From Candidatus Woesearchaeota archaeon (GTDB lineage Archaea > Nanobdellota > Nanobdellia > Pacearchaeales > GW2011-AR1): DNA of 35,989 nucleotides. The first letter of the stretch is position 1. Each line of letters opens with the position of its first letter. The notes beneath the pieces were generated by a model. That model saw nothing but the letters and a program-made list of their open reading frames with translations. It was not told the origin of the DNA and did not search any database. The position numbers were made by a program, and so were the translations under genes. Positions 6,016-22,895 of this stretch are shown in pieces. Where the stretch lies: positions 1-35,989 of the forward strand of contig CAYWFA010000001.1 in assembly GCA_964457815.1 (NCBI GenBank). Direction: 5' to 3'.

Positions 6016-6435
6016 TTAATTTTTCTTTGTTTTTAATTGCTCTAATTTATCTTGAACATGATTGAAAAGAATTGTTGAAACCAAGGGTTTGTGCTTGCCT
6101 TCATGAATTTGTCCGTCAAATTTAACTTTTCCAACATAAGCAAAATTCCTAAGAATTTTCTTTAAGCCATTCACAGAAAGTTTATGTTTTTGAGCTAAGA
6201 TAGAAAGATTTGTTTCGGGTTTTAAAAATTCTTCAAAGATTTCCTCTACTTCTCTGGAATTCTGGGCAGGAGTTAATATTTTGTTTCGTAAATCCCATTC
6301 ATAACCAAAAGGGGCTCGGGACATATGTTTTCCTTCTGAAAACTTCTTTATCATACCCTTTTTTTGAGAAATCCCTCTATTTTCTTTCTTGGGTTGTTCT
6401 ATTTCAAATTCATGTCCACATTTTGGGCATTTCAT
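6016..6435 (-). CDS. Stand-alone serine-recombinase 'Recombinase' (PF07508-like) DNA-binding domain protein with N-terminal CxxC; no resolvase catalytic domain
   Basis: 139 aa. CPKCGHEF, then RAPFGYEWD...EVEEIFEEFL...LSILAQKHKLS...LKKILRNFAYVGKVKF...HEGKHKPLVSTILFNHVQDKL matches the recombinase-domain consensus (PfGY ... iL.n..Y.G ... H.plis...f..vq). Its ATG overlaps the xerA stop (ATGA at 6432-6435). Confidence 0.7.
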   Translation of the reverse strand: MKCPKCGHEFEIEQPKKENRGISQKKGMIKKFSEGKHMSRAPFGYEWDLRNKILTPAQNSREVEEIFEEFLKPETNLSILAQKHKLSVNGLKKILRNFAYVGKVKFDGQIHEGKHKPLVSTILFNHVQDKLEQLKTKKN

Positions 6436-7265
6436 TTCATTACCTCGTCTATAGGAGATTTAATTTTTTTAAGTTCTTCTCTTGAAATATGAGTATAAAT
6501 TTGGGTAGTTGAAAGGTCACTATGTCCAAGCAATTCTTGTATCTTTCTTATATCTGTTCCATTCTCTAAAAGATGTGTGGCAAAACTGTGCCTTAAAGTG
6601 TGGCAATGAACATCTTTTTGTATACCTGCACGCTTTCCTGCCTTGGATATTATCTTTTGTAAATTTCTTTCTGAAAGTTTGTCTTTTGGGCCACTAAAAA
6701 GATATTCTTGTTTCAATTCTTTTTGTTTTTCAACCTGTATTTTCAAATCTTCCAATAAAAATTCTGGAATATTGAAAACTCGATCTTTCTTGCCTTTCCC
6801 TTGTCTAACGCTTCCAATTTTTTCTTGAAAATTCAAATCTTTGACTTTCAAATTAACTAATTCAGATACTCTGAAACCACAAGCATACATAAAAGAAACC
6901 ATTAACTTTGATTTTTTTGTATCAATAACTTCAATTAATTTCTTTATTTCTTCTTTTGTTAAAACTGTTGGTATTTTCTTTTCTTTTTTTGGACGTTTTA
7001 TATTTACAGTTATATCTTTATGCAAAATATTGGAAAATGAGTACCTTAATGCTGAAAGAAAAACGATCAATGAAGATGAAGAGGATTCATTGAATTTGTT
7101 TGCAAGATATGTTTTCACATCATCTTCATCTATATCTTCTGGATTTTTTTTCACTGAATCTAAAAACTTTCTGTTGCAATCCAAATAGTTCCTAAGAGTA
7201 TATTCTGAATTCTTTGAAATTTTCAGTTCAACCTCAAGTTTTTTTAAAAAATCTTCTTTATCCAT
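6432..7265 (-). CDS. xerA: Tyrosine recombinase, XerA/XerCD-like
   Basis: 277 aa. N-terminal SAM-like domain (YTLRNYLDCNRKFL). Catalytic signature ACGFRVSEL ... HCHTLRHSFATHLLENGTDIRKIQELLGHSDLSTTQIYTHI (R, H-x-x-R, H, Y). Length is typical of archaeal XerA. Confidence 0.9.
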   Translation of the reverse strand: MDKEDFLKKLEVELKISKNSEYTLRNYLDCNRKFLDSVKKNPEDIDEDDVKTYLANKFNESSSSSLIVFLSALRYSFSNILHKDITVNIKRPKKEKKIPTVLTKEEIKKLIEVIDTKKSKLMVSFMYACGFRVSELVNLKVKDLNFQEKIGSVRQGKGKKDRVFNIPEFLLEDLKIQVEKQKELKQEYLFSGPKDKLSERNLQKIISKAGKRAGIQKDVHCHTLRHSFATHLLENGTDIRKIQELLGHSDLSTTQIYTHISREELKKIKSPIDEVMK

Positions 7266-8474: not shown

Positions 8475-9218
8475 TTAATCCAACTCCACATACAAATAAT
8501 AAGCTGTTGCACCTGTGAAACCTTGAGAACCGTTTTCAGGAACCAACATTTGGAAATCGTAAGTTTGCCCATCATAACCTGCCAAATTGTCTTCTAAGAT
8601 TGTAGCATATATTATGCTAGTTCCATCATACAAAGCCATTTCTTCGAAATCATCATCTTGGGGATTATCATTTGTGTAAGTGTTTAAAGTTGGACATGCA
8701 TTTGCTCCAATGTTTGTGATTGCAACGGGAAAAGCATCGTGTGTACTAGGATAAGAGAAAGTTGCAGTTATATTGTCTGAAGTTCTATTATGAAACATTG
8801 CAGCATTTTCTGCCTCTAAATTAGTTGTTATATTTGCACATTCAATGGAAGACCATTCAATTGTATTGGAATCTCTTGTAGAATAAACTCTTCCTGTGGT
8901 TACACTTAAACTCCAATCATAAATTGTTGAACCTGCAGAATCATCCAAGGTAAATGCTCCATTTACCCATCCTACAAATGCTTTCCAATGAGTGTTTTGA
9001 ACGGAAGTGGTTAAATTTAAAGCAGCTATATATCCTCCTGAAATATTGAAGAATCCAGCAGAAGAGGTATTTTTAGTTTCATTCCAAACAGAATCCAAAT
9101 CATCTATTCCGCTCGGGTCTGCAGATAAAAAAACGTTTGAAAATAAAAAAACGGATAATAAAAATATCCCCGTTATCAAAATTCCAAATATAAGGTTATT
9201 TTTCTCATTTTTAAACAT
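8475..9218 (-). CDS. Secreted protein, divergent member (D) of the SW-G-YFG/YDFEMLV/FWVELE family
   Basis: 247 aa with a signal peptide. HWKAFVGWVNGAFTLDDSAGSTIYDWSL...GRVYST...EWSSIEC...FEEMALYDGTSIIYATILEDNLAGYDGQTYDFQMLVPENG...AYYLYVELD is collinear with paralogs A-C. Confidence 0.8.
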   Translation of the reverse strand: MFKNEKNNLIFGILITGIFLLSVFLFSNVFLSADPSGIDDLDSVWNETKNTSSAGFFNISGGYIAALNLTTSVQNTHWKAFVGWVNGAFTLDDSAGSTIYDWSLSVTTGRVYSTRDSNTIEWSSIECANITTNLEAENAAMFHNRTSDNITATFSYPSTHDAFPVAITNIGANACPTLNTYTNDNPQDDDFEEMALYDGTSIIYATILEDNLAGYDGQTYDFQMLVPENGSQGFTGATAYYLYVELD

Positions 9219-9300: not shown

Positions 9301-10059
9301 TTATTCTAATTCTACCCAGAAGAAATAGGTAGTTGTAGCTGTATCTGTTAAGTGTCCGTTTTCCAATACAAGCATCTCGAAATCATGGGCTCTTCCATCA
9401 AATCCTAATGGACTTTCTTCATCTAAGATAGATGTGAAAATTACACTTGATGTTGAAGTTTCATACAATAAAACTTCTTGGAAGGTGCTGTCTGTAGCAT
9501 TTTGATTTGCTGCAAATATATGTGTACTTGCACAAGCTCCTGCTGCAAATTCTCTGTTGTTTGTATAAAACAAATCATGCACAAGACCAAAACCATTTTC
9601 ATGAGTTCCATCAGTTGAGAATGTTTCATTCACTCCATCAACATCATCATAAGCAATTCCAAACTCTGCTTCTAAGTCTTCGAAATAAGTTCCTTTTTCA
9701 TCTTCAAGGCATTTAACTGCACTCCAATTCAAGGAACCGTTTGTAGAAGCGTAAATTTCACCCTCTGGTGAAGCTAGAGACCAATTGTACATTACATTAT
9801 CTGCATTATCAGCCAACATAATTGTACCTGTAACATTACCAAAATAACCTTGCCAAGACTGAGTTATTGAATAACCAGAAATTGCAAGTTCAGTTACGTT
9901 TCCTGCAATAGCAGTGGTATTTCCTGCAGCACTAGCGTTCATCCTTGAACTTGTTAGATTAACTACATTTGCTCCGAAGGGTTCAACTGCTGAAACCAAT
10001 GCAAACAAAAAGATGCTTAAAACTATTGTTAATAGGAACAATCTATTTAATTTATTCAT
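9301..10059 (-). CDS. Secreted protein, paralog A of the SW-G-YFG/YDFEMLV/FWVELE family
   Basis: 252 aa. Sec signal ...FALVSA/VEPFG. Invariant core GYSITQSWQGYFGNVTGTIMLADNADNVMYNWSLASPEGEIYAS. C-terminus HDFEMLVLENGHLTDTATTTYFFWVELE. GGAGGG lies upstream of the ATG. Confidence 0.85.
   Translation of the reverse strand: MNKLNRLFLLTIVLSIFLFALVSAVEPFGANVVNLTSSRMNASAAGNTTAIAGNVTELAISGYSITQSWQGYFGNVTGTIMLADNADNVMYNWSLASPEGEIYASTNGSLNWSAVKCLEDEKGTYFEDLEAEFGIAYDDVDGVNETFSTDGTHENGFGLVHDLFYTNNREFAAGACASTHIFAANQNATDSTFQEVLLYETSTSSVIFTSILDEESPLGFDGRAHDFEMLVLENGHLTDTATTTYFFWVELE
9749..9914 (-). repeat. Conserved DNA segment R-A, shared with 20969-21134 and 22535-22663
   Basis: Hand alignment to 20969-21134 gives 155/166 identical bases, including most third-codon positions. 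Confidence 0.85.
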
Positions 10060-10227
10060 CTCTTTTATTTTACCCTCCTTTCAATTTTATAAAACTTTTT
10101 AAGTTTATAGTATAAAATGCAGTTATTAATTTATAAATCTTTCCAAATTAGTAACTATTATAAAATTTATATTAATTTAAATACAATTCAACAAAAATTA
10201 AATAATAAAATAAATATTTTATTGAAA

Positions 10228-13200
10228 TTAAAATATTTCTACGTAAAAAACTGCGCTTTTTGAATCTTGTGCATTATATTCTCTTAATCTTGCTGGAACC
10301 CTTAATTCATAATCATAAATTCCGTATGTTCCTTGTTCATGTTTGTTGATCGGAGAAACAAAAACTAAATCTTCTTTGTCTGCTAAATCGAATTCTCCCT
10401 CTGTTCCATTTGTATCGTCTGAAAAATCCCAAAGTATTCCTGTTACAAAATTGGAATTGTTTGTTGAATTAATTATCGGAACATTTTGTATTAAGCTTTT
10501 AAACGAATAAATATCTTGAGAATATTTTGGAACTCCAGAATTTGTATAAACGTTGTAAACAGAATCTTCAAAAGAACTGGTATTTAATGCTAAATCAATT
10601 TCTGAAAAATCTGAATTGCTGTTTGAATTAATTTTGTTTTTTCCTATAGCTTGTAAACTTGTCCAAGAAACATAAGAATCATAATCTGCAACGTAGATAT
10701 TTCCTTGATTGAAATTTTCTGTACTCCAGTTAATTAATTTGGTTGAATCATTGTTTGCTAGAACTAGATTACTTGAAGTTAAAACATCTCCATAAAAGAA
10801 ATGCCATGAACCCACATTAATCGTTTTTGAAGCCTTGTTGTTGGATTCATTTAATTCTATATAGCTTCCATTTGTTGTTAAAGGAGGATCAACTACAACA
10901 AAAACTTCTGAAGAACCTATTGAAGCAATTAATTCTTGAGAAACATTTCTCTCGCTGAATTTAGAAAGATTAATGAAAATGTCTTCTCCAATCTTTTCTC
11001 CTCCTGAATCTGGATCTCCTTTGTAAAAATTAACTGTAACATTTGAAATATCTGCTCCTGCAAGATTACGTATTGTTGCAGTTATTTCTATTAACTGATT
11101 TTCTTTAGGAGAACTTTCATTTAAAAATATTTCAGAAGAATTAACTGAAAAATCCGGATAAGTTAAATTAAATGTTCTTAACTCGCTTATGTTTGTATTT
11201 TTCATTTGATCCCAACAAGTTACATTCCACCAATGCTCTCCCTGTCCTAAAATAGAGGTAAGAACGTATTCTCTTTTTGATATATTGCTTGAAACCCAAA
11301 CGTTGGGTCTTCTAACTATTCCATCTACTGTTAAATTACATTGCAAAACTGTATCTAATGTATCTATTGCTGTCCAGTTGAAATAAACTCTGTCTTCGTT
11401 GAAATCAATTCCAGATTCATTTTCAGGAGAATTAAGAATTATTGAAGGAGGGGAAAAATCCATTGAAAAATATTTTGAGGTTGCATTTGCACTAGAAGGA
11501 ACAGGATTATTTGTATCATAACATTCAACTGTCCAATTATGTAACCCTTCTGGAATTCCTGAGATTGTGAAATTTGGATTTATTATTAATTCTGCAGAAG
11601 ATTTAGATTCATTCGAAACTTCATCTATATACAAGGTACAATTGTTTATTATCTGTGCATCTTCTGCAAGATAATGAAATGTTACTGCACTTCCAAAACC
11701 ATAAAAATCGTCATCTGGTGTGTAAAGAGTTATTTGTGGGGGGGCATATACTGTGAAATTTCTTGTTTCACTTGTATTGGAATTTTCGGCAGAGTCTGCA
11801 CATTCAATTGTCCAATTGTAATCTCCATCATCTAACAAATAAGGATATATTTCTGGAGTTGAATTCTCTGCAATAACTTGATCATAAAAAATATTATTGA
11901 TGAAAACATTACAAGAGATATTTTCATTTAAATTGTCTTCCACTGTGAAATTAAATAAAACTTCATTCCAATCTAATGTTTCGTTTGGTTCGGGTGAATT
12001 AAGGACAATTTTTGGAGCTTCTATGTCGATGTACAAGGTTCTATTTTCATCACTACCTATTACCCCTAAAGAATCCGCACAATAAACATTCCAAGTATGA
12101 TTTCCTTGAGAAAGAATTTCCGTGAAATAATTTGAATTATCATTAATTATTGGTGTTGAATTAACTTTTACAAATTCGTTGTCTATATACAAAGAACAAT
12201 TAACTATATCCTCTTCATATTTGTAAGCATAATATTCAAATTCAACTTCTGTGTAATTAAGCCAAGAATCTGGTTCCGGAGAAATCAAAATAACATCTGG
12301 GGGAGCAAAGGTAGTGAATTTTCTTGTTTCACTAATATTTAAATTTCCTGAATAGTCTGAACAAGAAACATTCCAATAATGCTCTCCAGAAATAAATGAT
12401 CTTGAAATCAAATTTGTAGAGCCATTCTCTGCAATTATAGAAGTAATATTTCCATCAACCGTGAAATTACAAGTTAAATTTTGTGCTAAGTTATCAGTTG
12501 CGGTGAAATTAAATGTTATCTGAGAAGAATAAATTATATCCTCGTCTCCAGGATAAAATAAGTTTACTTGGGGAGTAGAATTGTCTTTATAAAAAAACCT
12601 TGTTTCCGAATTATTTTCTAATCCATAGGTATCAAAACAATTGATTGTCCAATTGTAAAAACCATCGGATAAATCGTTTATAGAAAAGTTGGTTTGTTGG
12701 TTGTTTAAAGGAGAATAAGTTATATTTTCAAAGGAGCCATTTATATAAATTGAACAATTTGATAAATTGGTATTGTCTGAAGGGAGATATTCCAATAAGA
12801 CTTGGTCTTTAAACCAGTATACGTCTTCTGTAATCAAAGAAATTTCAGGAAGTTCTCTTATTGTTATTTCCCTGTTTTCACTTATGCCATAACGTCCTGC
12901 AGAATCAATACAACTTACATTCCAAACTTTTAAACCATCTGTTAAATCTGTAATTAATATGCTTGTATTTGCATTATTACTTGCAAGCAAATTATTTTCT
13001 GATTTTTCTCCGATACTTAAATTGCAATTTAATTCTGAATCAAGATTATCAGTTACATTGAAATAAAAATTCAAAGAAGAAAATTGAGAAGTTGTTGAAG
13101 TTTCTGGATGTAAAAGATAAACAACAGGATTTTGTGTATCTACATAGAAACGTCTTGTATTCGCAATAACGCTATATTCCCCTGTGTCGGTTATATTGAC

Positions 13201-16200
13201 TGTCCAATTATAAAATCCATCTGGGAGAGTGAGTGTAAAATTATTGTATGCTTTATTTATAATTTGAGATTGATTGGACTGGTTGTATGTACCATTTAAA
13301 TATAAGTCTGCAATTGTTAAGTTGTTGTTGTCTGAAGCGTTATAAATTAAACTTATTGTTGATTCATTGAACCACCAAAAATCTGGAGTTATCAAAAATA
13401 TTTCTGGAGGAACATCATTTATATTGAAATGAAAAGTTTCGCTTGTATATGATCTTAAAGAAGAATCAAAACAAGTTACGTTCCAATAATGAGTCCCAAC
13501 TGTTAAATATCCTGAATTACGACTTACATTTGTTGCGTTTTCAACAATAATTCCAGGATAAATAATTTCACCATCCAAAACAATATCACATGTAAGATTT
13601 AATGCCATATTGTCAGTTGCATTAAATTCTAAATCAAGATTGTTTACAAGATTGTTTGCTCCGTCTTCAGGATAAATGAGATTTACAAAAGGATTTTCTA
13701 AATCAACATAAAATATTCTTGTTTCATTTGAAGCGGCTTCTAAACTAGTTGTGTCTGTTACATTCACACTCCAATTATAAATTCCTTGCCCAAGAGAAAC
13801 TGTAAAATTGTTTATAACATTATTTATTATTGACGATTGATTTGTTTGATTTAAATTTCCATTCAATATCAGTGTTGAATTTGCAAGATTATCGTTTATA
13901 TCTGAAACATTATAATAAAGAATTACTTGAGAAGAATTAAACCAACTTAGATTTATTGGAGAAGTTAAATTTACGTTTGGAGGTGTTGCTCCTGCAGAAG
14001 TAACTGTTATAGGAGTTGTAGTTGTACCGTTATAACTGTCATATGTTCCTACAGCAATACATCTAATGTTGTTGTCTGAAGAAAAAGTGTTACCTTCTAT
14101 TGTAAATGTTGTGTTTTGAGAGATATTTGTTACATTTCCTAAATAATGGGGATTTGTTTCTCCCGAATCTAAAACAATATTGCCTGAAGAGCCAATATTT
14201 TGCCATCCAGAAGTGGAAGTATTTCTTTGAATATAAACATTAACATTTCTACATGTTCCAGAAGAGCAATTGACTTGACAAACTGCATCGAATGTATCTT
14301 CTTGAGCAACATAGGGGTCTGTTAAAGGAGAAACCAAATCAGCATGTAAAAATCCTTCAGTGGTTAAGTTAACAATAACATAAGAATTTGTTCCGGAATC
14401 CCAAGAATGGGTCAAAGTTTTTTGGCTGGTATGTGTGTTGTATGCGTTGACAACTAATTTCAATCTATCACTCGGTCCAAGATAAATATCTTGATTTATA
14501 CATGTTGAATTTGTACCTGATGCAGCATTTTCAAATATTCCGCTATTTGCATCATTCCCTAATTGACAAATTAAAGTGTCTCCACTTGAGCCAGAAACAT
14601 AAAGTTTCCAAGTTATTGCTATTTTCCCTGTAGGAGTTGAAGAAGAAAAGGTTCCTGAAAAACTAATGGGGCTTCCGGAAGGAATAACCGCTCCATTATA
14701 ACCCATATACTGGGAAGTCGCACTAACAACATTTACTAATTGTCCTGCGCCAATATCAAATACTACAGAGTTTGAGGTTGCATCTTGGCTGCTTTTCAGT
14801 TTTATTTCTGCTAAAGTGTTTCTTGAAGGATTAAAATTAGAACTTTCATATAATGTTCCTGTAAATAATTCTGGAGTTATTGAAACATTTATTGTTTTAT
14901 TCTCACTGAAACCCGTTCTTCCCCCTTCATCTGTACAAGAAACATACCAAGAATAAACTCCATTATCTAAAAATTCGTTGAATGTTAAATTTATATCTTT
15001 TGTTATAGATGTTTCTGTTTTTTTTAATTGATTATTGATATATAAAGAACAATTTTCAACTGAAGAAGCATCAGAAACATTATATATAAAATACAAGTTA
15101 CTATCATCTGTAATTGTTGAAGAATTTGAAGGATAAACAAGATTAACTGAGGGAGATTCCAAGTCAAAAGAAAAAGTATAATTTGAAGTTCCAAAGAAAC
15201 ACCCATTAGAATTGTCGCAACATTGCACATTCCAGATATAATTTCCGGAAGAAGTATAAGTTTTATTTATGAAATTAAAAGTATTGTTAACTATTGAAGA
15301 TTGATTTGTTGAATTCATATGCCATAACCCCGTAGAATTATCCCACAAACTACAATTCAAAAAAGTTGCAGAAGAAATAGGGGTAAAATTAAAAACAACA
15401 TCTTGGGAATAAAGTATATCTGTGTCTAAAGGAGATCTTAAAAGAACTTCAAATGCTCCTGCTTCATAAATGCTATAACTAATTCTTAAATAACCTGCAG
15501 CCCCTGGACCTCCATTTCTTGAACCTCCAGAAGAAGTTTTAATTGCCCCAGAACCTCCACCTCCATAATTATTACCAGAATTTCCTGCCCCTGTAGTTGT
15601 TCTTCCTGCTCCTCCATCTCCCCCTAATTCAGACGTTCCTGTTCCTGCAGTTCCTCCAGTTGCATTTCCTCCAATCCCTGTTGAACCTGCACCTCCACCA
15701 CCTGCACCGGAATAGCCTCCTGATTGGGTCCCCCCTTTTCCTCCCATATAAATTATGTCCCCTATAGAATTTGCAACACTTCCTCCTTCTCCTCCTGTTC
15801 CTGCACTTAAACCTCCACTTCCCCCTGCAGCATATAATTCGGAACCATCATCAAAATATGTAGGATTTCCTGTTGCCCCATTCCCTGTTCCACCTGCAAC
15901 TCCTGAAGCTACAGCAACTGTATAATTTTCATAGGGGCTAACTGAAAAAGTTTTTTTAACATAAGCTCCTCCTCCACCTCCTCCTGCTCTTCCACTGCCT
16001 CCTCCTGGACGTCCTCCACCAGCACCCCCTCCACCCCAGGCTTCAACAGTAATTTCATAAACTCCTGCTGGAACCATCCAAGTTGTGCTTGAAGAAAAAT
16101 TTACAAGATAATATGTATAAGGATCAACAATATAATCAAATTCAACACTTCCCCCTACAACTTTTAAATCAAAGGTATCCTGAGGGTTTTGTAAATTTGT

Positions 16201-17601
16201 TAAATATATTTTATTGTATTCATTAGAGGTTATAGAAGTAAATTCTGCTATTTTTTCAGTTCCATTCTTTTCATAAACTTCAATAGTTGGATTTCCTGAA
16301 ATTATTCTTGGGTAGAGGGTTATATCTCTTGTATTATCTAAAGGAACTTCAAATGTGACTCTTACATACTCTTGATTTGCAATGGTTTCGGACCAAACAT
16401 CATCTAAATCTTTAACTTCCGGGTAAATATCTGAAATAAGAGTTCTGTTTGAAGATAAATGATCTGCCTTTGTTATGAGAATTATTTCAAAAGTCTGATT
16501 GGATAAATGGGGAACAATCCACTCAACATAATCAAATAACCCATTACCATCTTTATCATATGCATTAAAATCAAGATATACTCCTTCTTCCTTCCAATAA
16601 ACTTGAATTAAATCTATGCTTGAAATCTCTCTTGGAAGACTTGTATAAGATAAAACCTCTTCATAGTGGAGATAGTCTGGAGAAGAAATAATAACTTCTT
16701 TTTTATTTGTTGAAATTAATTTTTCTTGAACTATTGGAGGAGAAGTAGAATATTCTAGGAGAATAATTTCTTGAACATCATCATTTATCAAAATATAATC
16801 TTTTTCTTGAATATTTACTTGAGTGTAATCATTGAAAATTTCTCCATTTTCTTTTTTTAAAACGAAATTTAAAAAATTTGAAACTTCTAAAAAATTGCCT
16901 TCTTCCAATAAACTTACTTTTTTAATCCAATTTACAGGTTTTCCTATTTCGGCATTTCCTTGAATTAATTTATTTTCAACATATCTAACTGCATAAAAAG
17001 TATATGACGTTTTTCCATTTCCCCTTATTAAATCAACAGAATATTCTCCTTCCTCTAAAATCTCAAATAAAAAGATATCGTTAGAACCTAGTCTAGAGAT
17101 TCTTTTACCGGATGGTGAAATTATTCTTAATTCGTAATTTCCTAATCCCTGAAGATTAAATTCCAATGAACTCTCTGAAAAATAAGTGTTGGAATTTTGA
17201 AAATTAAAAGAATAATAATCTGAGAATTTGTTTAAAGAAATATTCGTTGAATAACTTTCAGAATAAACTGATTCTTCTCCTCCAGAGATAAAGTTTTTTT
17301 CGTTCACTTGAAATTCCAGTCTTTCAAATGTTTCTAAAGATTCTATGTCAAAAATATAACTTCCAGATTCTTGAAATAAAAAAGAAAATTCATTTTCACA
17401 GTTGAACTGAAGTTCGTTTGAAGGGGTTTTAACTTTGATGAAACAAGATTCAGAATCTTGAAAATTTAAAAAAAGTTTATCTCCAACAAAATAAGAATTT
17501 TCTTCAGATGCGGAACTAAAAAATAAAGAAAACACCAAAATTAAAACAAGTAAAACAAATAAAATTCCTGCACTTAATCTAATTATCCCCCCTTTGTTCA
17601 T
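10228..17601 (-). CDS. Giant secreted surface/adhesin-like protein (about 2457 aa): N-terminal beta domains, glycine-rich domain, tandem Ig-like modules, CARDB-like domain, C-terminal SW-G-YFG/FYVEIF domain
   Basis: Uninterrupted ORF. The track start at 17622 is a TTG. The ATG at 17601 is preceded by AAGGGAGA and overlaps the upstream wHTH stop (ATGA). Signal/TM is IIRLSAGILFVLLVLILVFSLFFSSA. Domain evidence is given under the sub-features. Confidence 0.9.
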   Translation of the reverse strand: MNKGGIIRLSAGILFVLLVLILVFSLFFSSASEENSYFVGDKLFLNFQDSESCFIKVKTPSNELQFNCENEFSFLFQESGSYIFDIESLETFERLEFQVNEKNFISGGEESVYSESYSTNISLNKFSDYYSFNFQNSNTYFSESSLEFNLQGLGNYELRIISPSGKRISRLGSNDIFLFEILEEGEYSVDLIRGNGKTSYTFYAVRYVENKLIQGNAEIGKPVNWIKKVSLLEEGNFLEVSNFLNFVLKKENGEIFNDYTQVNIQEKDYILINDDVQEIILLEYSTSPPIVQEKLISTNKKEVIISSPDYLHYEEVLSYTSLPREISSIDLIQVYWKEEGVYLDFNAYDKDGNGLFDYVEWIVPHLSNQTFEIILITKADHLSSNRTLISDIYPEVKDLDDVWSETIANQEYVRVTFEVPLDNTRDITLYPRIISGNPTIEVYEKNGTEKIAEFTSITSNEYNKIYLTNLQNPQDTFDLKVVGGSVEFDYIVDPYTYYLVNFSSSTTWMVPAGVYEITVEAWGGGGAGGGRPGGGSGRAGGGGGGAYVKKTFSVSPYENYTVAVASGVAGGTGNGATGNPTYFDDGSELYAAGGSGGLSAGTGGEGGSVANSIGDIIYMGGKGGTQSGGYSGAGGGGAGSTGIGGNATGGTAGTGTSELGGDGGAGRTTTGAGNSGNNYGGGGSGAIKTSSGGSRNGGPGAAGYLRISYSIYEAGAFEVLLRSPLDTDILYSQDVVFNFTPISSATFLNCSLWDNSTGLWHMNSTNQSSIVNNTFNFINKTYTSSGNYIWNVQCCDNSNGCFFGTSNYTFSFDLESPSVNLVYPSNSSTITDDSNLYFIYNVSDASSVENCSLYINNQLKKTETSITKDINLTFNEFLDNGVYSWYVSCTDEGGRTGFSENKTINVSITPELFTGTLYESSNFNPSRNTLAEIKLKSSQDATSNSVVFDIGAGQLVNVVSATSQYMGYNGAVIPSGSPISFSGTFSSSTPTGKIAITWKLYVSGSSGDTLICQLGNDANSGIFENAASGTNSTCINQDIYLGPSDRLKLVVNAYNTHTSQKTLTHSWDSGTNSYVIVNLTTEGFLHADLVSPLTDPYVAQEDTFDAVCQVNCSSGTCRNVNVYIQRNTSTSGWQNIGSSGNIVLDSGETNPHYLGNVTNISQNTTFTIEGNTFSSDNNIRCIAVGTYDSYNGTTTTPITVTSAGATPPNVNLTSPINLSWFNSSQVILYYNVSDINDNLANSTLILNGNLNQTNQSSIINNVINNFTVSLGQGIYNWSVNVTDTTSLEAASNETRIFYVDLENPFVNLIYPEDGANNLVNNLDLEFNATDNMALNLTCDIVLDGEIIYPGIIVENATNVSRNSGYLTVGTHYWNVTCFDSSLRSYTSETFHFNINDVPPEIFLITPDFWWFNESTISLIYNASDNNNLTIADLYLNGTYNQSNQSQIINKAYNNFTLTLPDGFYNWTVNITDTGEYSVIANTRRFYVDTQNPVVYLLHPETSTTSQFSSLNFYFNVTDNLDSELNCNLSIGEKSENNLLASNNANTSILITDLTDGLKVWNVSCIDSAGRYGISENREITIRELPEISLITEDVYWFKDQVLLEYLPSDNTNLSNCSIYINGSFENITYSPLNNQQTNFSINDLSDGFYNWTINCFDTYGLENNSETRFFYKDNSTPQVNLFYPGDEDIIYSSQITFNFTATDNLAQNLTCNFTVDGNITSIIAENGSTNLISRSFISGEHYWNVSCSDYSGNLNISETRKFTTFAPPDVILISPEPDSWLNYTEVEFEYYAYKYEEDIVNCSLYIDNEFVKVNSTPIINDNSNYFTEILSQGNHTWNVYCADSLGVIGSDENRTLYIDIEAPKIVLNSPEPNETLDWNEVLFNFTVEDNLNENISCNVFINNIFYDQVIAENSTPEIYPYLLDDGDYNWTIECADSAENSNTSETRNFTVYAPPQITLYTPDDDFYGFGSAVTFHYLAEDAQIINNCTLYIDEVSNESKSSAELIINPNFTISGIPEGLHNWTVECYDTNNPVPSSANATSKYFSMDFSPPSIILNSPENESGIDFNEDRVYFNWTAIDTLDTVLQCNLTVDGIVRRPNVWVSSNISKREYVLTSILGQGEHWWNVTCWDQMKNTNISELRTFNLTYPDFSVNSSEIFLNESSPKENQLIEITATIRNLAGADISNVTVNFYKGDPDSGGEKIGEDIFINLSKFSERNVSQELIASIGSSEVFVVVDPPLTTNGSYIELNESNNKASKTINVGSWHFFYGDVLTSSNLVLANNDSTKLINWSTENFNQGNIYVADYDSYVSWTSLQAIGKNKINSNSNSDFSEIDLALNTSSFEDSVYNVYTNSGVPKYSQDIYSFKSLIQNVPIINSTNNSNFVTGILWDFSDDTNGTEGEFDLADKEDLVFVSPINKHEQGTYGIYDYELRVPARLREYNAQDSKSAVFYVEIF
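10231..10809 (-). other. C-terminal 193-aa domain of the giant protein, homologous to the small secreted paralogs
   Basis: SWHFFYGDVLTSSNLVLANNDSTKLINWSTENFNQGNIYVADYDSYVSWTSL ... EDLVFVSPINKHEQGTYGIYDYELRVPARL...KSAVFYVEIF is collinear with SWQGYFGNVTGTIMLADNADNVMYNWSLASPEGEIYASTNGSLNWSAV ... SSVIFTSILDEESPLGFDGRAHDFEMLVLENG...TTYFFWVELE. Confidence 0.65.
10810..11160 (-). other. CARDB-like domain within the giant protein
   Basis: IEITATIRNLAGADISNVTVNFYKGDP...EVFVVVDP...IELNESNNKASKTI. The E-x-NE-x-NN ending and overall pattern are typical of CARDB. Confidence 0.6.
11161..13990 (-). repeat. Ten consecutive ~94-aa (about 283-bp) Ig-like modules arranged as five alternating A-B pairs
   Basis: Each module starts with a P-x-[VI]-x-L-x-x-P-like boundary. 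Each contains ...[FY]-x-[FY]-x-x-x-D...C-x-[LI]...G-x-[YH]-x-W-x-V-x-C-x-D...SE-x-R-x-F. A-type modules (L-x-x-P..W[FL]N...LNG..NQSNQS.IIN..NNFT...G.YNW) alternate with B-type modules (...ATDN...L.C...). Confidence 0.8.
15475..16085 (-). other. Glycine-rich domain (locally GC-rich) within the giant protein
   Basis: TWMVPAGVYEITVEAWGGGGAGGGRPGGGSGRAGGGGGGAY...GGSGG...GGGGAGSTGIGGNATGG...GGPGAAGYLRISY. The W-x-VPAGV...WGGGG...start and the Y-x-R-I-x-Y end match the glycine-rich domain recalled from phage tail-fibre-like and bacterial surface proteins. Confidence 0.6.
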
Positions 17602-17837
17602 TTTTCTCCCTTTATTTGCCAAAGATTTATTCTTCCTACACGAAAGCCATTAATCCTGTTATTTATTTGAAGTCTTAGACAACGAGTTTGAATGGAATGC
17701 CAAGGTTTTTTAATTTCATCTGCAATTTCCTGGGTAGATTTTGGATTAACGGAGCTAGAAAGAGACTTGACTATTTCTAATTCTAACACATCCTCTTTTT
17801 TGCGATTAACCGTACGGTTAATCTTACTTTTAATCAT
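17598..17837 (-). CDS. Small winged-helix DNA-binding protein; its stop overlaps the ATG of the giant gene
   Basis: 79 aa. SVNPKSTQEIADEIKKPWHSIQTRCLRLQINNRINGFRVGRINLWQI fits helix-turn-helix plus wing. Its TGA stop overlaps the giant-gene ATG (ATGA, 17598-17601). Confidence 0.7.
   Translation of the reverse strand: MIKSKINRTVNRKKEDVLELEIVKSLSSSVNPKSTQEIADEIKKPWHSIQTRCLRLQINNRINGFRVGRINLWQIKGEK
17805..17822. promoter_or_regulatory. Perfect 18-bp palindrome attaaccgt|acggttaat, candidate operator
   Basis: Read directly from the sequence. It lies 15-32 nt downstream of the wHTH ATG (17837), inside codons 6-11. Confidence 0.35.
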
Positions 17838-17860
17838 ACTATATAACGCAAGAAGAATTG

Positions 17861-17869
17861 ATTTAAATA
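17861..17869 (-). promoter_or_regulatory. Candidate TATA box for the wHTH/giant-protein transcription unit
   Basis: The minus strand reads tatttaaat centred about 28 nt upstream of the ATG at 17837, consistent with a leaderless or short-leader archaeal mRNA. Confidence 0.35.
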
Positions 17870-17937
17870 CCTTTTGTATATTATTTATATTTCAATTGAT
17901 TTATAAGCCTAGGAAATAGTTGAAAAAGTATCTTTTT

Positions 17938-19311
17938 TTAAAAGATTTTAACTGTGAAAGGGCCTTTTTCGTTAACATAAGCAAAGTAATAAAAATAATT
18001 CTCGTCCTGCTCATAAAATGTTAAAGGAATCTCTTTTTCTCCTGAAAATACGTTGATTGATTTTTTCTTTTCTACTTTAAAGACAAGGAAAATCTTATCT
18101 ATATCCCCGGGAGGCAAATTTGTTAATATTTTAAAGGAATTTTCCTCTTTTTTTGCAGATTTTTTTGTTTCAAATTCCAAATAGGAATAAGAATTGAAAA
18201 TTTGTTTTTTTGGAAATATTGCAACTGTTTTAAGATAATCTTCTGTTGAATGTAAAATTATTGGATGGTCTTGGGAGCCCATTTGAACCACCGGGAAATT
18301 AAAATAACCTTTTGCAAAATGATTTGTCTTGTGAAAAGGAATAAATTTGAACCTGAAAAGAAGAACTTTGTTAATTGATTCTTTGTTTTCAATCCTCTGA
18401 TAGAATGGGTATTCCTGTTTAATAAAAGTTTCTGGACTTTTTAATGTGTAATTTGCTGTGAACTCCATTCTATTTGTTATGTTTTCTGTTAAAATATTGT
18501 GTGTGGAACTGAAATCCTTTGTTATGAAATAATTAAAAAATTTCCAATCAGATGGAAAATAAAATAAAAATTCTCCTGAAATATTGTGTGAGGCGTTAAA
18601 TGAGGAGGAAAAAATAATATTTTCGTTGGAAGGAACATAAAAATAATTTGGTTTTATTTTACATTTCTTACAAAAAACTTCCAAGTTAAAATTAAGATAA
18701 TCTAAATTGTAAAAAATTATCTTCTCGGAAATCTCTCTTGGGCCGTAAGCCGTAAAAATTATTTCGTTTTTTCCTTTGTCAAGGCTCATAGGAAACTCAA
18801 CAGTTGTACAATTTGTGCAAATATTTCCTTCTGAAAATCCTTCAGAAGAGTTTAAAGAATATTTCAAATTATTGTAATGTTCAGCAAGTGCGATATTTAA
18901 AATAATTGAAGATTGATTGACAAATATTTTTTCAATTGGAGAATTAATTGTTATTGCCTTCTGCAAATTCATCTGGGGGAATAAATCATATCCTTCTCCG
19001 GTTAGATACAAATTAACGGGTCCCGCAACAAATCCTGCATCCTGATCAAAAACCTCGGCAAAAATTTTTTTTCCAACAGAATAATTGAATGCGGGAAGTT
19101 CCTCTGTATCACAACAAAACTTGTTTTCTGGATTAATTTCACACTGGATAATTTTGGAATGATTCTCATCTGGATAAATAATAACTTTGGACCAGGAAGA
19201 TGAAAAATTCTGAGAATCGTTTACAAAACCGCAAACAAAATTGGAACTAACATGAGACAAACTAAAAAGAATAATAAAAAATACCGCCAAAAAAAGATAT
19301 CCCCTAGTCAT
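17938..19311 (-). CDS. Secreted Cys- and Asn-rich hypothetical protein
   Basis: 457 aa, ATG start, signal peptide MTRGYLFLAVFFIILFSLSHVSS. No TM anchor and no recognised domain. Lies 34 nt downstream of the HExxH membrane-protein gene. Confidence 0.75.
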   Translation of the reverse strand: MTRGYLFLAVFFIILFSLSHVSSNFVCGFVNDSQNFSSSWSKVIIYPDENHSKIIQCEINPENKFCCDTEELPAFNYSVGKKIFAEVFDQDAGFVAGPVNLYLTGEGYDLFPQMNLQKAITINSPIEKIFVNQSSIILNIALAEHYNNLKYSLNSSEGFSEGNICTNCTTVEFPMSLDKGKNEIIFTAYGPREISEKIIFYNLDYLNFNLEVFCKKCKIKPNYFYVPSNENIIFSSSFNASHNISGEFLFYFPSDWKFFNYFITKDFSSTHNILTENITNRMEFTANYTLKSPETFIKQEYPFYQRIENKESINKVLLFRFKFIPFHKTNHFAKGYFNFPVVQMGSQDHPIILHSTEDYLKTVAIFPKKQIFNSYSYLEFETKKSAKKEENSFKILTNLPPGDIDKIFLVFKVEKKKSINVFSGEKEIPLTFYEQDENYFYYFAYVNEKGPFTVKIF

Positions 19312-19345
19312 AGAAAATGAAAATTAACTGAGTATAAAAGATTTT

Positions 19346-20446
19346 CTAAACTCCAGTTAAATGAATAAATTCTTCTTCTGTTGTCCTGGATTTTGCAAGG
19401 ATGAGTATGCCTAAAATAATTATTGCTCCTCCGAACATTGAAAAGAAAGAAGACAAAACATTTGAAAATCCCAAATCTATGAAATCTTTGTAGGATATAA
19501 CTATATTGAATCCCAATATCAACAAAGAAATTTCTTTCATGAAAGTACCTCCTCCAAAAAAGAACAAGAAAGCAACAAGAACGGGAACAAAAATCCCCCC
19601 CAAAATTATTATACCTAGAGAATCTGGAGAATTGCCACATAGTATTTCGGTGTGGGGGAGGCTCCCTTCGTAAACAATCCTTTCCAAATCACAATCTGTG
19701 AAAAGTTTGGAAACAAAAAAATGTCCCGATTCATGAATAGCAATGGTCCCTATAAAAACAAAATTAGTTAAGATAACTATAAAAATAAAATATCGAATAA
19801 AATCAAATAGATAGTATTTTTTTTTAAAACTATGTTTTTTTTCGCTGGAAGAAAAAGGAATCTTTTTTAAATCTATTACAAAAAATAAAATAAATACAAA
19901 GAAAAACAAATTAGAAATTAAACTCATCAAAATTGAAGATTGATTTTTAAAGATAAGAATAACCTCCAATAAAAGTGAAATGGAACAGTAAAAAATTGCA
20001 AACTTAGAAATTCTTGCAAATTGGGGGATTGAAATTAACAAGATAAATAATATCATTATAAGCATTAAAGAAGAAATTAAAAGGAAGTTTGGAAAATTCC
20101 ATCCCATTAAAATTGAGAATATGAAAATTAAATAAATAAAAAGAAGGTAGAATATTTTCTTATTTTTTCTTATATTGTAAATTAGTATAAGAAGGAAGAT
20201 AGATTCAACAGATATTAAAATTGAATGAATGAATAAAAAATCTGAAGGATTATACGTAGTTACATTAAATACCACTAAAGAAAAAACTAAAGAATAAATC
20301 AAAAAAATGAATCCCATTAAAAACAATAAAAGGAATGCATTCCCTAATTTAGGATATTTCTTGTTATTTATTATAAAATTGAAAATTAAAAAGATTGCAA
20401 TTGCTAATGAAATTAAAGCATTTAACAAAAATAAAAAATTTATCAT
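19346..20446 (-). CDS. Polytopic membrane protein with HExxH motif (putative intramembrane zinc metalloprotease)
   Basis: 366 aa and hydrophobic throughout, with about 8-9 predicted TM segments. IAIHESGHFFVSK (HESGH encoded at 19721-19735) lies at the edge of a TM segment, as in M50/S2P-like proteases. The second (NxxPxxxxDG) motif was not recognised. Confidence 0.7.
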   Translation of the reverse strand: MINFLFLLNALISLAIAIFLIFNFIINNKKYPKLGNAFLLLFLMGFIFLIYSLVFSLVVFNVTTYNPSDFLFIHSILISVESIFLLILIYNIRKNKKIFYLLFIYLIFIFSILMGWNFPNFLLISSLMLIMILFILLISIPQFARISKFAIFYCSISLLLEVILIFKNQSSILMSLISNLFFFVFILFFVIDLKKIPFSSSEKKHSFKKKYYLFDFIRYFIFIVILTNFVFIGTIAIHESGHFFVSKLFTDCDLERIVYEGSLPHTEILCGNSPDSLGIIILGGIFVPVLVAFLFFFGGGTFMKEISLLILGFNIVISYKDFIDLGFSNVLSSFFSMFGGAIIILGILILAKSRTTEEEFIHLTGV

Positions 20447-20571
20447 CTTCTTAATAAACAGTTCTTAACGATTAAAAATAACTGATGTTCCATACAAAAA
20501 AAGGTTTAAAAGTATATTTAAATGTTTTTTAAAAATGAATAATAAGGGCAAAAAATAAAAAAAATGCGCCC

Positions 20572-21273
20572 TTATTCAAGTTCTACCCAAAAGTAGTATG
20601 TTGTTGGATTTGTATCTATTCCATGGCCGTCTTCAAGAACCATCATTTCAAAGTCGTGAGGGTTGTTATCAAAACCATCTGCATCATTTAATAAAAGAGA
20701 TGCAAAGATTATATTTGGACCATCTGTAAGCAAAACTTCATCAAATGTTCCCGTTCCCACGCTGTTATACAATTTTGTGCTATTACATAAGCCTGTAGTA
20801 AATTGTTTGTTGTTTGTGAAAAACTCTGCGTGATTGTTTAAATTAAATGTTTCATTCAATCCATCTGCATCAGCAGTAGAAATTCCAAACATGTTTTCAA
20901 AAAAAGTCATATTTGTAGGCTCATCATAACATTGAATACCTTCCCAAGCTACAGAAGAGGAATTAGATGCGTAAATTTCACCCTCTGGTGAAGCCAGAGA
21001 CCAATTGTACATAACATTATCTGAATTATCTGCCAACATAATTGTACCTGTAACGTTACCGAAATAACCTTGCCAAGACTGGGTTATCGAATAACCAGAA
21101 ATTGCAAGTTCTGTTATATTTCCTGCAATAGCAGAATCATTTCCTGCAGAAGTAACGTTAGCCCGTGAGCTTGTCAAGTTGGTCACGACAGCTCCATTAG
21201 GTAATGCAGACACCAATGAAGACAATATCAAGATTGTACAAAAAACCAATACAAAATTAATTATTTTTCTCAT
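20572..21273 (-). CDS. Secreted protein, paralog B of the SW-G-YFG/YDFEMLV/FWVELE family
   Basis: 233 aa. Signal ...LSSLVSA/LPNG. Core GYSITQSWQGYFGNVTGTIMLADNSDNVMYNWSLASPEGEIYAS. C-terminus HDFEMMVLEDGHGIDTNPTTYYFWVELE. GGAGGT lies 7 nt upstream of the ATG. Confidence 0.85.
   Translation of the reverse strand: MRKIINFVLVFCTILILSSLVSALPNGAVVTNLTSSRANVTSAGNDSAIAGNITELAISGYSITQSWQGYFGNVTGTIMLADNSDNVMYNWSLASPEGEIYASNSSSVAWEGIQCYDEPTNMTFFENMFGISTADADGLNETFNLNNHAEFFTNNKQFTTGLCNSTKLYNSVGTGTFDEVLLTDGPNIIFASLLLNDADGFDNNPHDFEMMVLEDGHGIDTNPTTYYFWVELE
20969..21134 (-). repeat. Conserved DNA segment R-B
   Basis: 155/166 identical to 9749-9914. Positions 20975-21097 are 121/123 identical to 22541-22663. 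Confidence 0.85.
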
Positions 21274-21892
21274 TTTGTTTACCTCCTTTCATCTCTATAA
21301 TTTTTTTTAAAAAAACAGGATTTTGGTAAATTGGAAAAAGAGAAGAAAAAGAAATATTATTTATTTCATTTAAAGAATAAAATTCAAGCTTAACACTGTT
21401 CTCTTGCTTTTTAGAAATATTTTCTATTGTTTGTTGGATTTTTTTATCTTCCAAAAATATGATTAAAGAAGAATTTGATTTTTTTATATCCGCAAAAATT
21501 GCATATATGCTCTTAAAGTTGTCTTTAACCTTATAAATAAACTCCTCTAGAAAGAATTGTGAAGATTTATTCTCCAAGAGCCAAATTTTAAAGATTGATT
21601 TTTGATAATCTTCTAAATCTAGATTTTTTTTCTCTCCAAAACCATTGGTAAGTAAAATTGAATAACAAATATCTTTTGAAATTGAAAAGAGATTCCTTGG
21701 TTTTCCTTTTTCAAAAGCACCCGTCTTTTCCTTGGAAACAATTTGAGCTGCTTCAAGCAATTTTAACTGCTGACTGATAAATGAAACTGTTGTTTTTGTT
21801 TTTTCTGCAATCTCAATTGGGGAGGAAGGCTTCTCCGAGATAATTTTGAGAATTTCCCACCTCGGAGATGCCAGAAAAGAATCAAGTTCCAT
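21257..21892 (-). CDS. ArsR-like winged-helix transcriptional regulator with C-terminal extension
   Basis: 211 aa. SPRWEILKIISEKPSSPIEIAEKTKTTVSFISQQLKLLEAAQIVSKEKTG...PRNLFSI is a typical ArsR/SmtB-type HTH. Its 3' end overlaps the paralog B start by 17 nt. Confidence 0.75.
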   Translation of the reverse strand: MELDSFLASPRWEILKIISEKPSSPIEIAEKTKTTVSFISQQLKLLEAAQIVSKEKTGAFEKGKPRNLFSISKDICYSILLTNGFGEKKNLDLEDYQKSIFKIWLLENKSSQFFLEEFIYKVKDNFKSIYAIFADIKKSNSSLIIFLEDKKIQQTIENISKKQENSVKLEFYSLNEINNISFSSLFPIYQNPVFLKKIIEMKGGKQNEKNN

Positions 21893-22062
21893 TAGTTAAT
21901 AGATATCTCAAAAGCTATTTAAATGTTTTGTTTAATTAATTAACTTAATTTTTTTACTAATGAGGGTAAAAAATTATAAAGGCTTATTAACTAAATAAAG
22001 TAAATAGTTAAATAGTTTATAAAAAATAAAGGGAATTTTATTTAAAATCTAAAAAAAAGAAA

Positions 22063-22851
22063 TTATTCTAATTCAATCCAAAAGTAATAAGTTGTTGTTT
22101 CCGTATCTGTTAAATGCCCGTTTTCAAGAACAAGCATTTCAAAATCATGGGGATTGTTATCAAAACCAAAAACATTTTCATTTAACAAAGAGGTAAATAT
22201 GATACTACGTGTAGTTGGTTCATATAAAAGAACTTCTTCAAATTTATTGTCTTCGCCTTGTCCAGAATTGGTGAAAACTTGAGTGTTTCTACATTCTCCT
22301 TCTGAAAAATTAAGATTATTTGTATAAAATGTATTATGGCCTGAACCTAAAAGGGTGAAGGTTTCGTTTACTCCATCCACATCATCATCAGCAATTCCAA
22401 ACATTGCTTCCAAAATTGTTAAATTGGTTCCATGTTGATTTGTATCTCCGGGAGTTTCTGCTCCAATGTAAGTTCCATCTGCGTCAAAATTAAAACATTG
22501 AACATCTGCCCAAGAAATTGAGTCATTTGTAGAAGCATAGATTTCACCCTCTGGTGAAGCCAGAGACCAATTGTACATAACATTATCTGAATTATCTGCC
22601 AACATAATTGTACCTGTAACATTACCAAAATAACCTTGCCAAGACTGGGTTATCGAATAACCAAATATACTTAGCTCCGTAACATTTCCCGCCAAAGCTG
22701 GAATACCTGTTGCGTCATCTGAATCTGCCCTGCTAGAGGATAAATTAACAACATTTGCTCCAAAGGGTTCAATTGCTAAAACCAAGGAAATGTTCAATAA
22801 AAATATTAGCACAGCAACGAAAAGTATTACTTGTTTCATCCTCTTTACCAT
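22063..22851 (-). CDS. Secreted protein, paralog C of the SW-G-YFG/YDFEMLV/FWVELE family
   Basis: The track ORF starts at a TTG (22866). The first ATGs are at 22851 (MVKRMKQ...) and 22839. Signal ...ISLVLA/IEPFG. Core GYSITQSWQGYFGNVTGTIMLADNSDNVMYNWSLASPEGEIYAS. C-terminus HDFEMLVLENGHLTDTETTTYYFWIELE. Confidence 0.85.
   Translation of the reverse strand: MVKRMKQVILFVAVLIFLLNISLVLAIEPFGANVVNLSSSRADSDDATGIPALAGNVTELSIFGYSITQSWQGYFGNVTGTIMLADNSDNVMYNWSLASPEGEIYASTNDSISWADVQCFNFDADGTYIGAETPGDTNQHGTNLTILEAMFGIADDDVDGVNETFTLLGSGHNTFYTNNLNFSEGECRNTQVFTNSGQGEDNKFEEVLLYEPTTRSIIFTSLLNENVFGFDNNPHDFEMLVLENGHLTDTETTTYYFWIELE
22535..22663 (-). repeat. Conserved DNA segment R-C
   Basis: Positions 22541-22663 are 121/123 identical to 20975-21097. 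Similarity drops sharply outside this segment. Confidence 0.85.
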
Positions 22852-22895
22852 CGATAAAATAAACAAAAAGAGCTTTATAATTCTTTCTTTTTTAA

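Follow-up and report, generated by a model that had tools for sequence, protein, structure and literature searches.

Probable recurrent gene conversion in the conserved core of three secreted-protein paralogs of a Candidatus Woesearchaeota archaeon

Introduction

Gene conversion between nearby paralogs is a textbook process. Duplicated tuf genes in bacteria undergo concerted evolution, and in the pilE/pilS system of Neisseria and the vlsE system of Borrelia variable segments from silent cassettes are transferred at high frequency to a single expression site. The present work concerns a 35,989-nucleotide stretch of DNA from a Candidatus Woesearchaeota archaeon (GenBank assembly GCA_964457815.1, contig CAYWFA010000001.1, positions 1 to 35,989 of the forward strand), the whole of which is referred to here as the window. 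Three paralogous genes in the window, designated A, B, and C, share a short core of nearly identical DNA within coding sequences that have otherwise diverged. Comparison of these genes with each other and with their counterparts in sister genomes indicates that the identity of the A, B, and C cores very probably results from recurrent interlocus gene conversion. Concerted evolution is described for the rRNA operons of bacteria (PMC8022953) and, in a recurrent form restricted to one domain, for mtrA-1 and mtrA-2 of methanogenic archaea (Wang et al., PMC4632066), and other prokaryotic cases of concerted evolution match the pattern found for A, B, and C (PMC6053082).

Results

A near-identical core tract in three diverged paralogs

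Paralog A (9301-10059, minus strand) is an open reading frame (ORF) of 252 amino acids. Paralog B (20572-21273, minus strand) encodes 233 amino acids from a start that overlaps the stop of an ArsR-like regulator gene, and paralog C (22063-22866, minus strand) encodes 267 amino acids from a TTG codon, or 258 amino acids from the ATG at 22839 that is used in public gene calls. A repeat search revealed one direct-repeat family, the copies of which lie at 9744, 20964, and 22530 with spacings of 11220 and 1566 nucleotides. The tract in A (9749-9914, minus strand) is identical to that in B (20969-21134, minus strand) at 155 of 166 positions, and its inner part (9755-9877) matches C at 117 of 123. 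Between the tract in C (22541-22663, minus strand) and the corresponding part of B (20975-21097), 121 of 123 positions are identical, including an uninterrupted run of 80 nucleotides (20975-21054 in B). Both differences between B and C are synonymous (TTC/TTT and AAC/AAT), and the core peptide is the same in all three proteins save for one A/S difference.

A preliminary description of this DNA had reported near-identical segments in A, B, and C, heavy divergence of their flanks, and a direct orientation of the repeats. The identity counts for A-B and B-C were reproduced exactly, with the A-C count added here, and the geometry of the repeats was found to be correct, B and C being separated by 1566 bp and A lying 11.2-12.8 kb from B and C. 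Outside the core, silent-site divergence (pS) of 0.6-1.0 and nonsynonymous divergence (pN) of 0.2-0.7 confirmed that the flanks are heavily diverged.

Homogenization extends to silent sites

The preliminary description had proposed that exchange among the copies be recognized from the distribution of silent divergence along the genes. Sliding 20-codon windows of a codon alignment of A, B, and C showed this distribution to be strongly non-uniform. Windows inside the core gave pS values of 0.00-0.37 and pN values of 0-0.02, and pS among the three cores was 0.19-0.26 as compared with 0.62-0.67 in the 3′ part of the genes. The low pS cannot be due to protein conservation alone, since pS stays at 0.5-1.0 across the conserved C-terminal motifs HDFEMLVLENGH and YYFWVELE. 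A fourth close paralog, E, forms the C-terminal domain of a 526-amino acid protein whose N-terminal part is long and of low complexity, and is encoded on another contig (C26, 3105-4682, minus strand) of the source genome, which is denoted G000 (other genomes compared carry numbers of the form G0xx). E retains 31 of the 35 core residues, and its core pS relative to the other three is 0.62, no different from that over the remainder of the gene, as compared with 0.21-0.26 among A, B, and C in the same analysis.

Codon bias as a cause of the A/B/C identity was ruled out by 200000 simulations in which codons were drawn from G000's own usage. Among the 40-41 codons that specify the same residue in each A/B/C pair, ∼22 are expected to be identical. 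The numbers observed were 33 for A-B (P = 6.5e-5), 34 for A-C (P = 4e-5), and 36 for B-C (0 of 200000 simulations). For E against each of these three, the count was 18-22 identical codons of 33-34 (P between 0.14 and 0.66). Homogenization of the A/B/C core therefore reaches silent sites and goes beyond what protein constraint or codon bias would produce. Silent polymorphic sites were also examined for runs with a Sawyer-type test, which returned a global P of 0.012 for B-C.

Core and flanks have different histories

The protein family to which A, B, and C belong was found in 12 of the 23 other genomes of the same genus but not in 37 genomes from other genera of the same family and order, a result that is to be read as “not found” rather than absent because the genomes compared are incomplete metagenome-assembled genomes (MAGs). 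Orthologs of A, B, C, E, and a distant paralog, D, are syntenic, those of A, B, C, and E in 12 species of the genus. Trees of the 3′ part and of the 5′ part each recover the ortholog classes A, B, C, and E. By contrast, in the tree of the 123-nucleotide core the A, B, and C sequences group by genome in at least six species, with E standing apart. In the IQ-TREE analysis of the core, the G000 copies of A, B, and C formed a clade (support 79/71), and the B orthologs were rejected as a monophyletic group (approximately unbiased (AU) test, p = 0.003), whereas in that of the 3′ part the B orthologs formed a clade (90/81) and a clade of the G000 copies was rejected (AU p = 1e-7). The genes are thus mosaic, in that the tract and flank trees conflict and the boundary between them matches the sliding pS profile. 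The number of genome-label changes was 15 on the core tree, below the minimum of 19 obtained in 300 shuffles. On the 3′ tree it was 24, a random-like value.

Over a 126-nucleotide core segment, the G000 paralogs differ from one another at 4-8 nucleotides, as compared with 12-30 differences from the orthologs in the nearest relatives (contig ERZ27282906 k141_3939771, G009, and G014). This relation is reversed in the last 100 codons, where orthologs show 11-21 differences per 100 nucleotides and paralogs 33-44. Given that the paralog cores are closer than the ortholog cores, homogenization in G000 is later than the split from these relatives.

The same pattern recurs in other species of the genus. 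In G000, G017, G018, G020, G022, and G010, there are paralog pairs whose cores are more alike than either is to a copy from any other genome. The A and C cores of G020 differ at 6 of 123 positions and have a species-specific sequence; independent homogenization of the A and C cores, again with species-specific sequences, is present in G017, G018, and G022, and B and C are homogenized in G023 with windows of 100% identity. Alignment of the amino acid sequences reveals core variants common to the paralogs of a single species, for example “TIQLAD” in G017, “NND” in G020, “GVIML..VLYNWSV” in G001, and “NGD..SPQGE” in G023.

Chimeric paralogs in sister species

Gene halves have also been shuffled by recombination, the junction lying at the core or immediately beyond it. 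The gene at the C position of G010 is C-type in its 5′ part and B-type in its 3′ part, with the ArsR-like gene retained before B, and the gene at the A position of the same genome joins an A-type 5′ part to a B-type 3′ part, adjoins D, and is preceded by the homolog of a giant gene that in the window lies between A and B. In G001, the gene at the B position is of the B type in its 5′ part and of the A type in its 3′ part. Since the intervening genes (ArsR-like and giant) are kept, these chimeras would have arisen by conversion and not by deletion. Gene order and intervening genes are in fact retained in all species, chimera carriers included, which fits conversion, and a deletion between A and B or C that removes the giant gene was found neither in the sister genomes nor in a look-up of predicted chimeras.

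The G010 locus (L045; G010:C13:8000-10700) displays a further feature. The last ∼285 nucleotides of its C-position and B genes (274-978 and 1784-2494) are 100% identical, and the cores of the two genes differ (pN 0.20). This mosaic is the reverse of that in the window, the 3′ part having been converted very recently.

Recurrent gene conversion as the favored explanation

The suggestion in the preliminary description that gene conversion or recent recombination had occurred among the copies is borne out by the non-uniform silent divergence and by the phylogenetic tests. The course of events can be explained by the following minimal model. A, B, and C are old paralogs with orthologs of each across the genus, which share a nearly invariant core of 40-50 residues that is under strong purifying selection and similar enough to pair. 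Owing to this similarity at the DNA level, the core would remain a substrate for homologous recombination. RadA-type recombination would then copy non-crossover tracts of ∼80-170 nucleotides between the direct repeats, and extension of a tract would be stopped by the diverged flanks (heteroduplex). We infer both the RadA-dependent enzymology and the direction of the tracts. In G000, the latest event would have involved B and C, which are 1.5 kb apart (2 differences in 123 nucleotides), and slightly older events would have involved A, which is 11-13 kb away (6-8 differences), leaving paralog E, at its distant locus, untouched. The frequency of exchange would on this model fall with distance, from B-C through A-B/C to none for E. 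A rare longer tract, starting from the core or just after it, may swap a gene half and so give rise to a chimeric paralog, and the same process appears to have run independently in several sister species. Because the exchanged peptide is the same save for the one A/S residue, the events in G000 were nearly silent for the protein. Homogenization of the core would for the most part be a by-product that arose neutrally, not a device favored by selection.

A RadA gene is encoded in G000. The match to RadA (Rad51 family) is split into N-terminal and C-terminal halves on two contigs (C31:6327-6782 and C33:5838-6161), which may be due to a break between contigs or to radA carrying an intein or an insertion.

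Several observations weigh against recurrent conversion. The evidence comprises assembled sequences only, the core is only 123 nucleotides in length, and the support values on its tree are moderate. The Sawyer-type run test was not significant for A-B or A-C alone, as scattered later substitutions interrupt the runs; for A, the codon simulations and the pS contrasts were used in its place. Homogenization is lacking in G009, G008, and G001, which implies that the process is episodic. In addition, Hjc was not found in the G000 genome, which is 80% complete.

Alternative explanations

The alternative that survives best, although it is unlikely, is an active variation system in which frequent crossovers at the core generate deletions, circles or duplications, and chimeras within the living population. 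A perfect B5′-C3′ chimera exists in a public protein collection (P0052). It is encoded on a Logan contig of sample SRR27584555 (SRR27584555_1332685, here L061) of 1569 nucleotides, which corresponds to the 1566-bp C3′-ArsR-B5′ unit plus 3 nucleotides. Its path runs from 21294 to 20975 of the window (B 5′ part) and continues from 22620 to 21292 (C 3′ part and ArsR-like gene), the switch lying within the 80-nucleotide identical run. In the same sample, the contig that carries the 3′ part of B starts 6 nucleotides past the point of B/C divergence, without the usual k-1 overlap. In three other samples the loop is an ordinary unitig of 1503 nucleotides (1566 - 123 + 60), and Logan contigs (k = 31) of SRR27584549 and SRR5007151 end at the repeat, overlapping there by the 30 nucleotides that are expected. 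Chimeras fixed in G010 and G001 also speak for this alternative, as do three contigs from different samples that share a start base just after C.

On the other side, the same cycle as L061 is present in any de Bruijn graph built at k = 31 from the normal locus, and L061 can consequently be the artifact of a low-coverage graph. L061 may be an excised circle, a tandem duplication, or a cycle in the k = 31 graph, and we lean toward the last, artifactual, origin. The preliminary description had predicted that recombination between B and C would delete the regulator gene and fuse a chimeric paralog, and that recombination between A and B or C would excise the giant gene. These products were not observed, in that an exact look-up among ∼15 billion proteins returned none of the nine other possible A/B/C chimeras (of ten predicted), including the C5′-B3′ deletion product. 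The k141 and SPAdes assemblies contain the parental order only, and the sister-species chimeras, having retained the ArsR-like and giant genes, point to conversion and not to crossover. Moreover, the tract exchanged in G000 does not encode a variable part of the protein, as would be expected in antigenic variation, but an invariant peptide with a single A/S difference. It is improbable that the core serves as a built-in recombination joint that reshuffles N-terminal and C-terminal halves in living populations and amplifies or excises the 1566-bp unit, with L061 as a real circle or tandem duplication. Of the earlier idea that recombination at this locus is a route to surface variation, slow evolutionary shuffling of modules can be upheld, whereas ongoing switching cannot.

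The three contigs with a common start merit description in their own right. They derive from different samples and assemblers (ERZ795053 NODE_86673, ERZ27257486 k141_782248, and JGI 3300025847 Ga0209607_1112280), begin at position 22043 of the window, 20 nucleotides past the stop of C, and are 100% identical downstream. Position 22043, at the 3′ end of C, looks like a boundary between strain-level variants.

Conservation of the core DNA for a function of its own within the coding region, whether as a structured RNA, in regulation, or as a signal for recombination, would account for the near-total silent-site identity of the tract across three genes and had been raised as an option in the preliminary description. 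However, median pS between orthologs in sister species is 0.59 in the core as compared with 0.68 in the 3′ part, and E, in the same genome, has already been seen to be just as diverged at silent sites of the core. A search against Rfam gave a tRNA as the sole match in the window and none in the core, and the fold z-scores of the core, −0.06 to −0.81, carry no signal. Silent core sites are evidently free to change between species, which excludes a nucleotide-level element, and this option was rejected as highly unlikely.

It is equally hard to credit that A, B, and C arose by recent duplication, in which case the core would display their true young age and the flanks would have diverged rapidly through diversifying selection. 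Surface proteins often evolve fast, and the flank pN of 0.24-0.34 would agree with this, but silent sites in the flanks are saturated (pS 0.6-1.0), which is not an effect of positive selection. In addition, A, B, C, and E have orthologs in conserved synteny in 12 species, and these orthologs fall into separate clades on both the 3′ and 5′ parts, from which it follows that the duplications are old.

Least probable of all is an assembly artifact, that is, a repeat collapsed or turned into a consensus by the metagenome assembler, since, although G000 is a fragmented MAG of 114 contigs and k = 31 Logan contigs break or self-close at the repeat, the tract of 123-166 nucleotides is about one read long and lies in unique flanks, the window is reproduced at 100% identity across B and the sequence on either side of it in four independent assemblies (JGI 3300010349, ERZ27257452 and ERZ27257486 (MEGAHIT k141), and ERZ795053 (SPAdes)), a contig of SRR27584552 carries A intact, and the same pattern occurs with species-specific sequences in other genomes, so that the assembly collapse feared in the preliminary description can be dismissed.

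The surface-gene cluster and the protein family

The genome G000 comprises 681 kb at 30% G+C and is ∼80% complete; its size and the archaeal ribosomal protein genes present in the window are in keeping with a DPANN archaeon, one of Pacearchaeota-like type. A, B, and C lie in a cluster of same-strand genes together with genes for giant immunoglobulin (Ig)-domain proteins, a membrane HerA/FtsK-type ATPase, coiled-coil proteins, and the ArsR-like regulator. All three proteins possess a Sec-type signal peptide and many N-x-S/T sequons. From these sequence features, A, B, and C appear to be small secreted proteins, probably N-glycosylated, encoded in a surface-structure gene cluster. Their invariant core is probably an assembly or anchoring interface. 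Searches with the A, B, and C proteins gave no family match in Pfam or NCBIfam and no sequence relative in the PDB. A hidden Markov model of the family detected only A, B, C, D, and E in G000. Approximately 1000 homologs were found, every one annotated as “hypothetical” and all from Nanobdellota/Pacearchaeota; the family comprises 881 clusters at 50% identity, and the domain is sometimes C-terminal in proteins of up to 1724 amino acids. A mediocre AlphaFold2 model (predicted local distance difference test (pLDDT) score 64.5) has a beta-rich C-terminal domain, with the core (residues 34-96) scoring below 50, perhaps because an invariant block provides no covariation signal. Foldseek gave no significant match to this model in the PDB.

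The distant paralog D (8475-9218, minus strand) adjoins A, has ∼31% protein identity to C, and lies outside the converted set. The gene for the ArsR/winged helix-turn-helix-like regulator (21257-21892, minus strand) lies between C and B within the 1566-bp repeat unit. Its product matches Pfam HTH_5 (2.6e-6) and NCBIfam ArsR/SmtB (1.5e-7, below the NCBIfam cut-off), and an ArsR-like gene likewise lies between the C-position and B-position genes in G010 and in a relative designated R.

The giant surface-protein gene (10228-17622, minus strand), situated between the A and B repeats and flanked by A and a gene for 457 amino acids, encodes 2464 amino acids with Gly_rich_2 and Big domains. In the closest relative (L062, ERZ27282906 k141_3939771) its place is taken by a gene for 3939 amino acids with matches to DUF2341, Laminin_G_3, and AF_1625_C. 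As the flanking genes are orthologous, the giant gene has evidently been substituted as a cassette. The family core motif showed a weak match to the C terminus of the giant protein (hhalign E 1.9e-4, probability 48%). Presence of the family domain in the ectodomain of the ATPase was considered and not supported (hhalign probability 1.8%). At the edge of the surface-gene cluster (6016-7265, minus strand), a gene for an XerC/D-type tyrosine recombinase is followed by a 139-amino acid ORF with a fragment of a “Recombinase” domain; the pair occupies the same place in the relative's contig, and no link between it and the A/B/C exchanges was found. A second giant gene contains, at 34031-35401, an internal duplication with a period of 879 nucleotides and 73-86% identity (repeat families D5, D6, D9, and D13).

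Discussion

The exchanges described here document homologous recombination within the reduced genome of an uncultured, host-dependent DPANN archaeon. They also reveal that an uncharacterized secreted family of ∼1000 members is modular, an invariant core being combined with two exchangeable variable halves. This has a practical consequence for trees and ortholog sets of these surface genes, in which the core misleads, and it identifies the core as the part most deserving of structural study.

The pilE/pilS and vlsE systems resemble the A/B/C locus in having partly homologous copies of surface genes, exchange of segments that at the A/B/C locus is probably non-reciprocal as well, and conserved blocks that supply the homology. 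The difference is that A, B, and C are all complete genes with their own signal peptides and that the segment exchanged is the invariant one. As it is the invariant segment that moves, the protein is hardly changed by exchange. With the rRNA operons and tuf genes, the locus shares RecA/RadA-type recombination between dispersed repeats as the process that would keep the copies alike. In those systems, however, whole genes of identical function are affected, whereas in A, B, and C only a short conserved block within diverged genes is involved.

The mtrA-1 and mtrA-2 pair is similar in consisting of old neighboring paralogs in one cluster, of which a single part is homogenized while the rest diverges, and in that the paralogs group by species in the converted part and by ortholog elsewhere. 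Unlike mtrA-1 and mtrA-2, the present system has a tract of only ∼125-165 nucleotides and three copies, involves secreted surface proteins with no assigned function in a DPANN archaeon, and is homogenized episodically, in about half of the species sampled. The mechanism is ordinary, and partial concerted evolution has already been described in archaea; the gene family is new for it.

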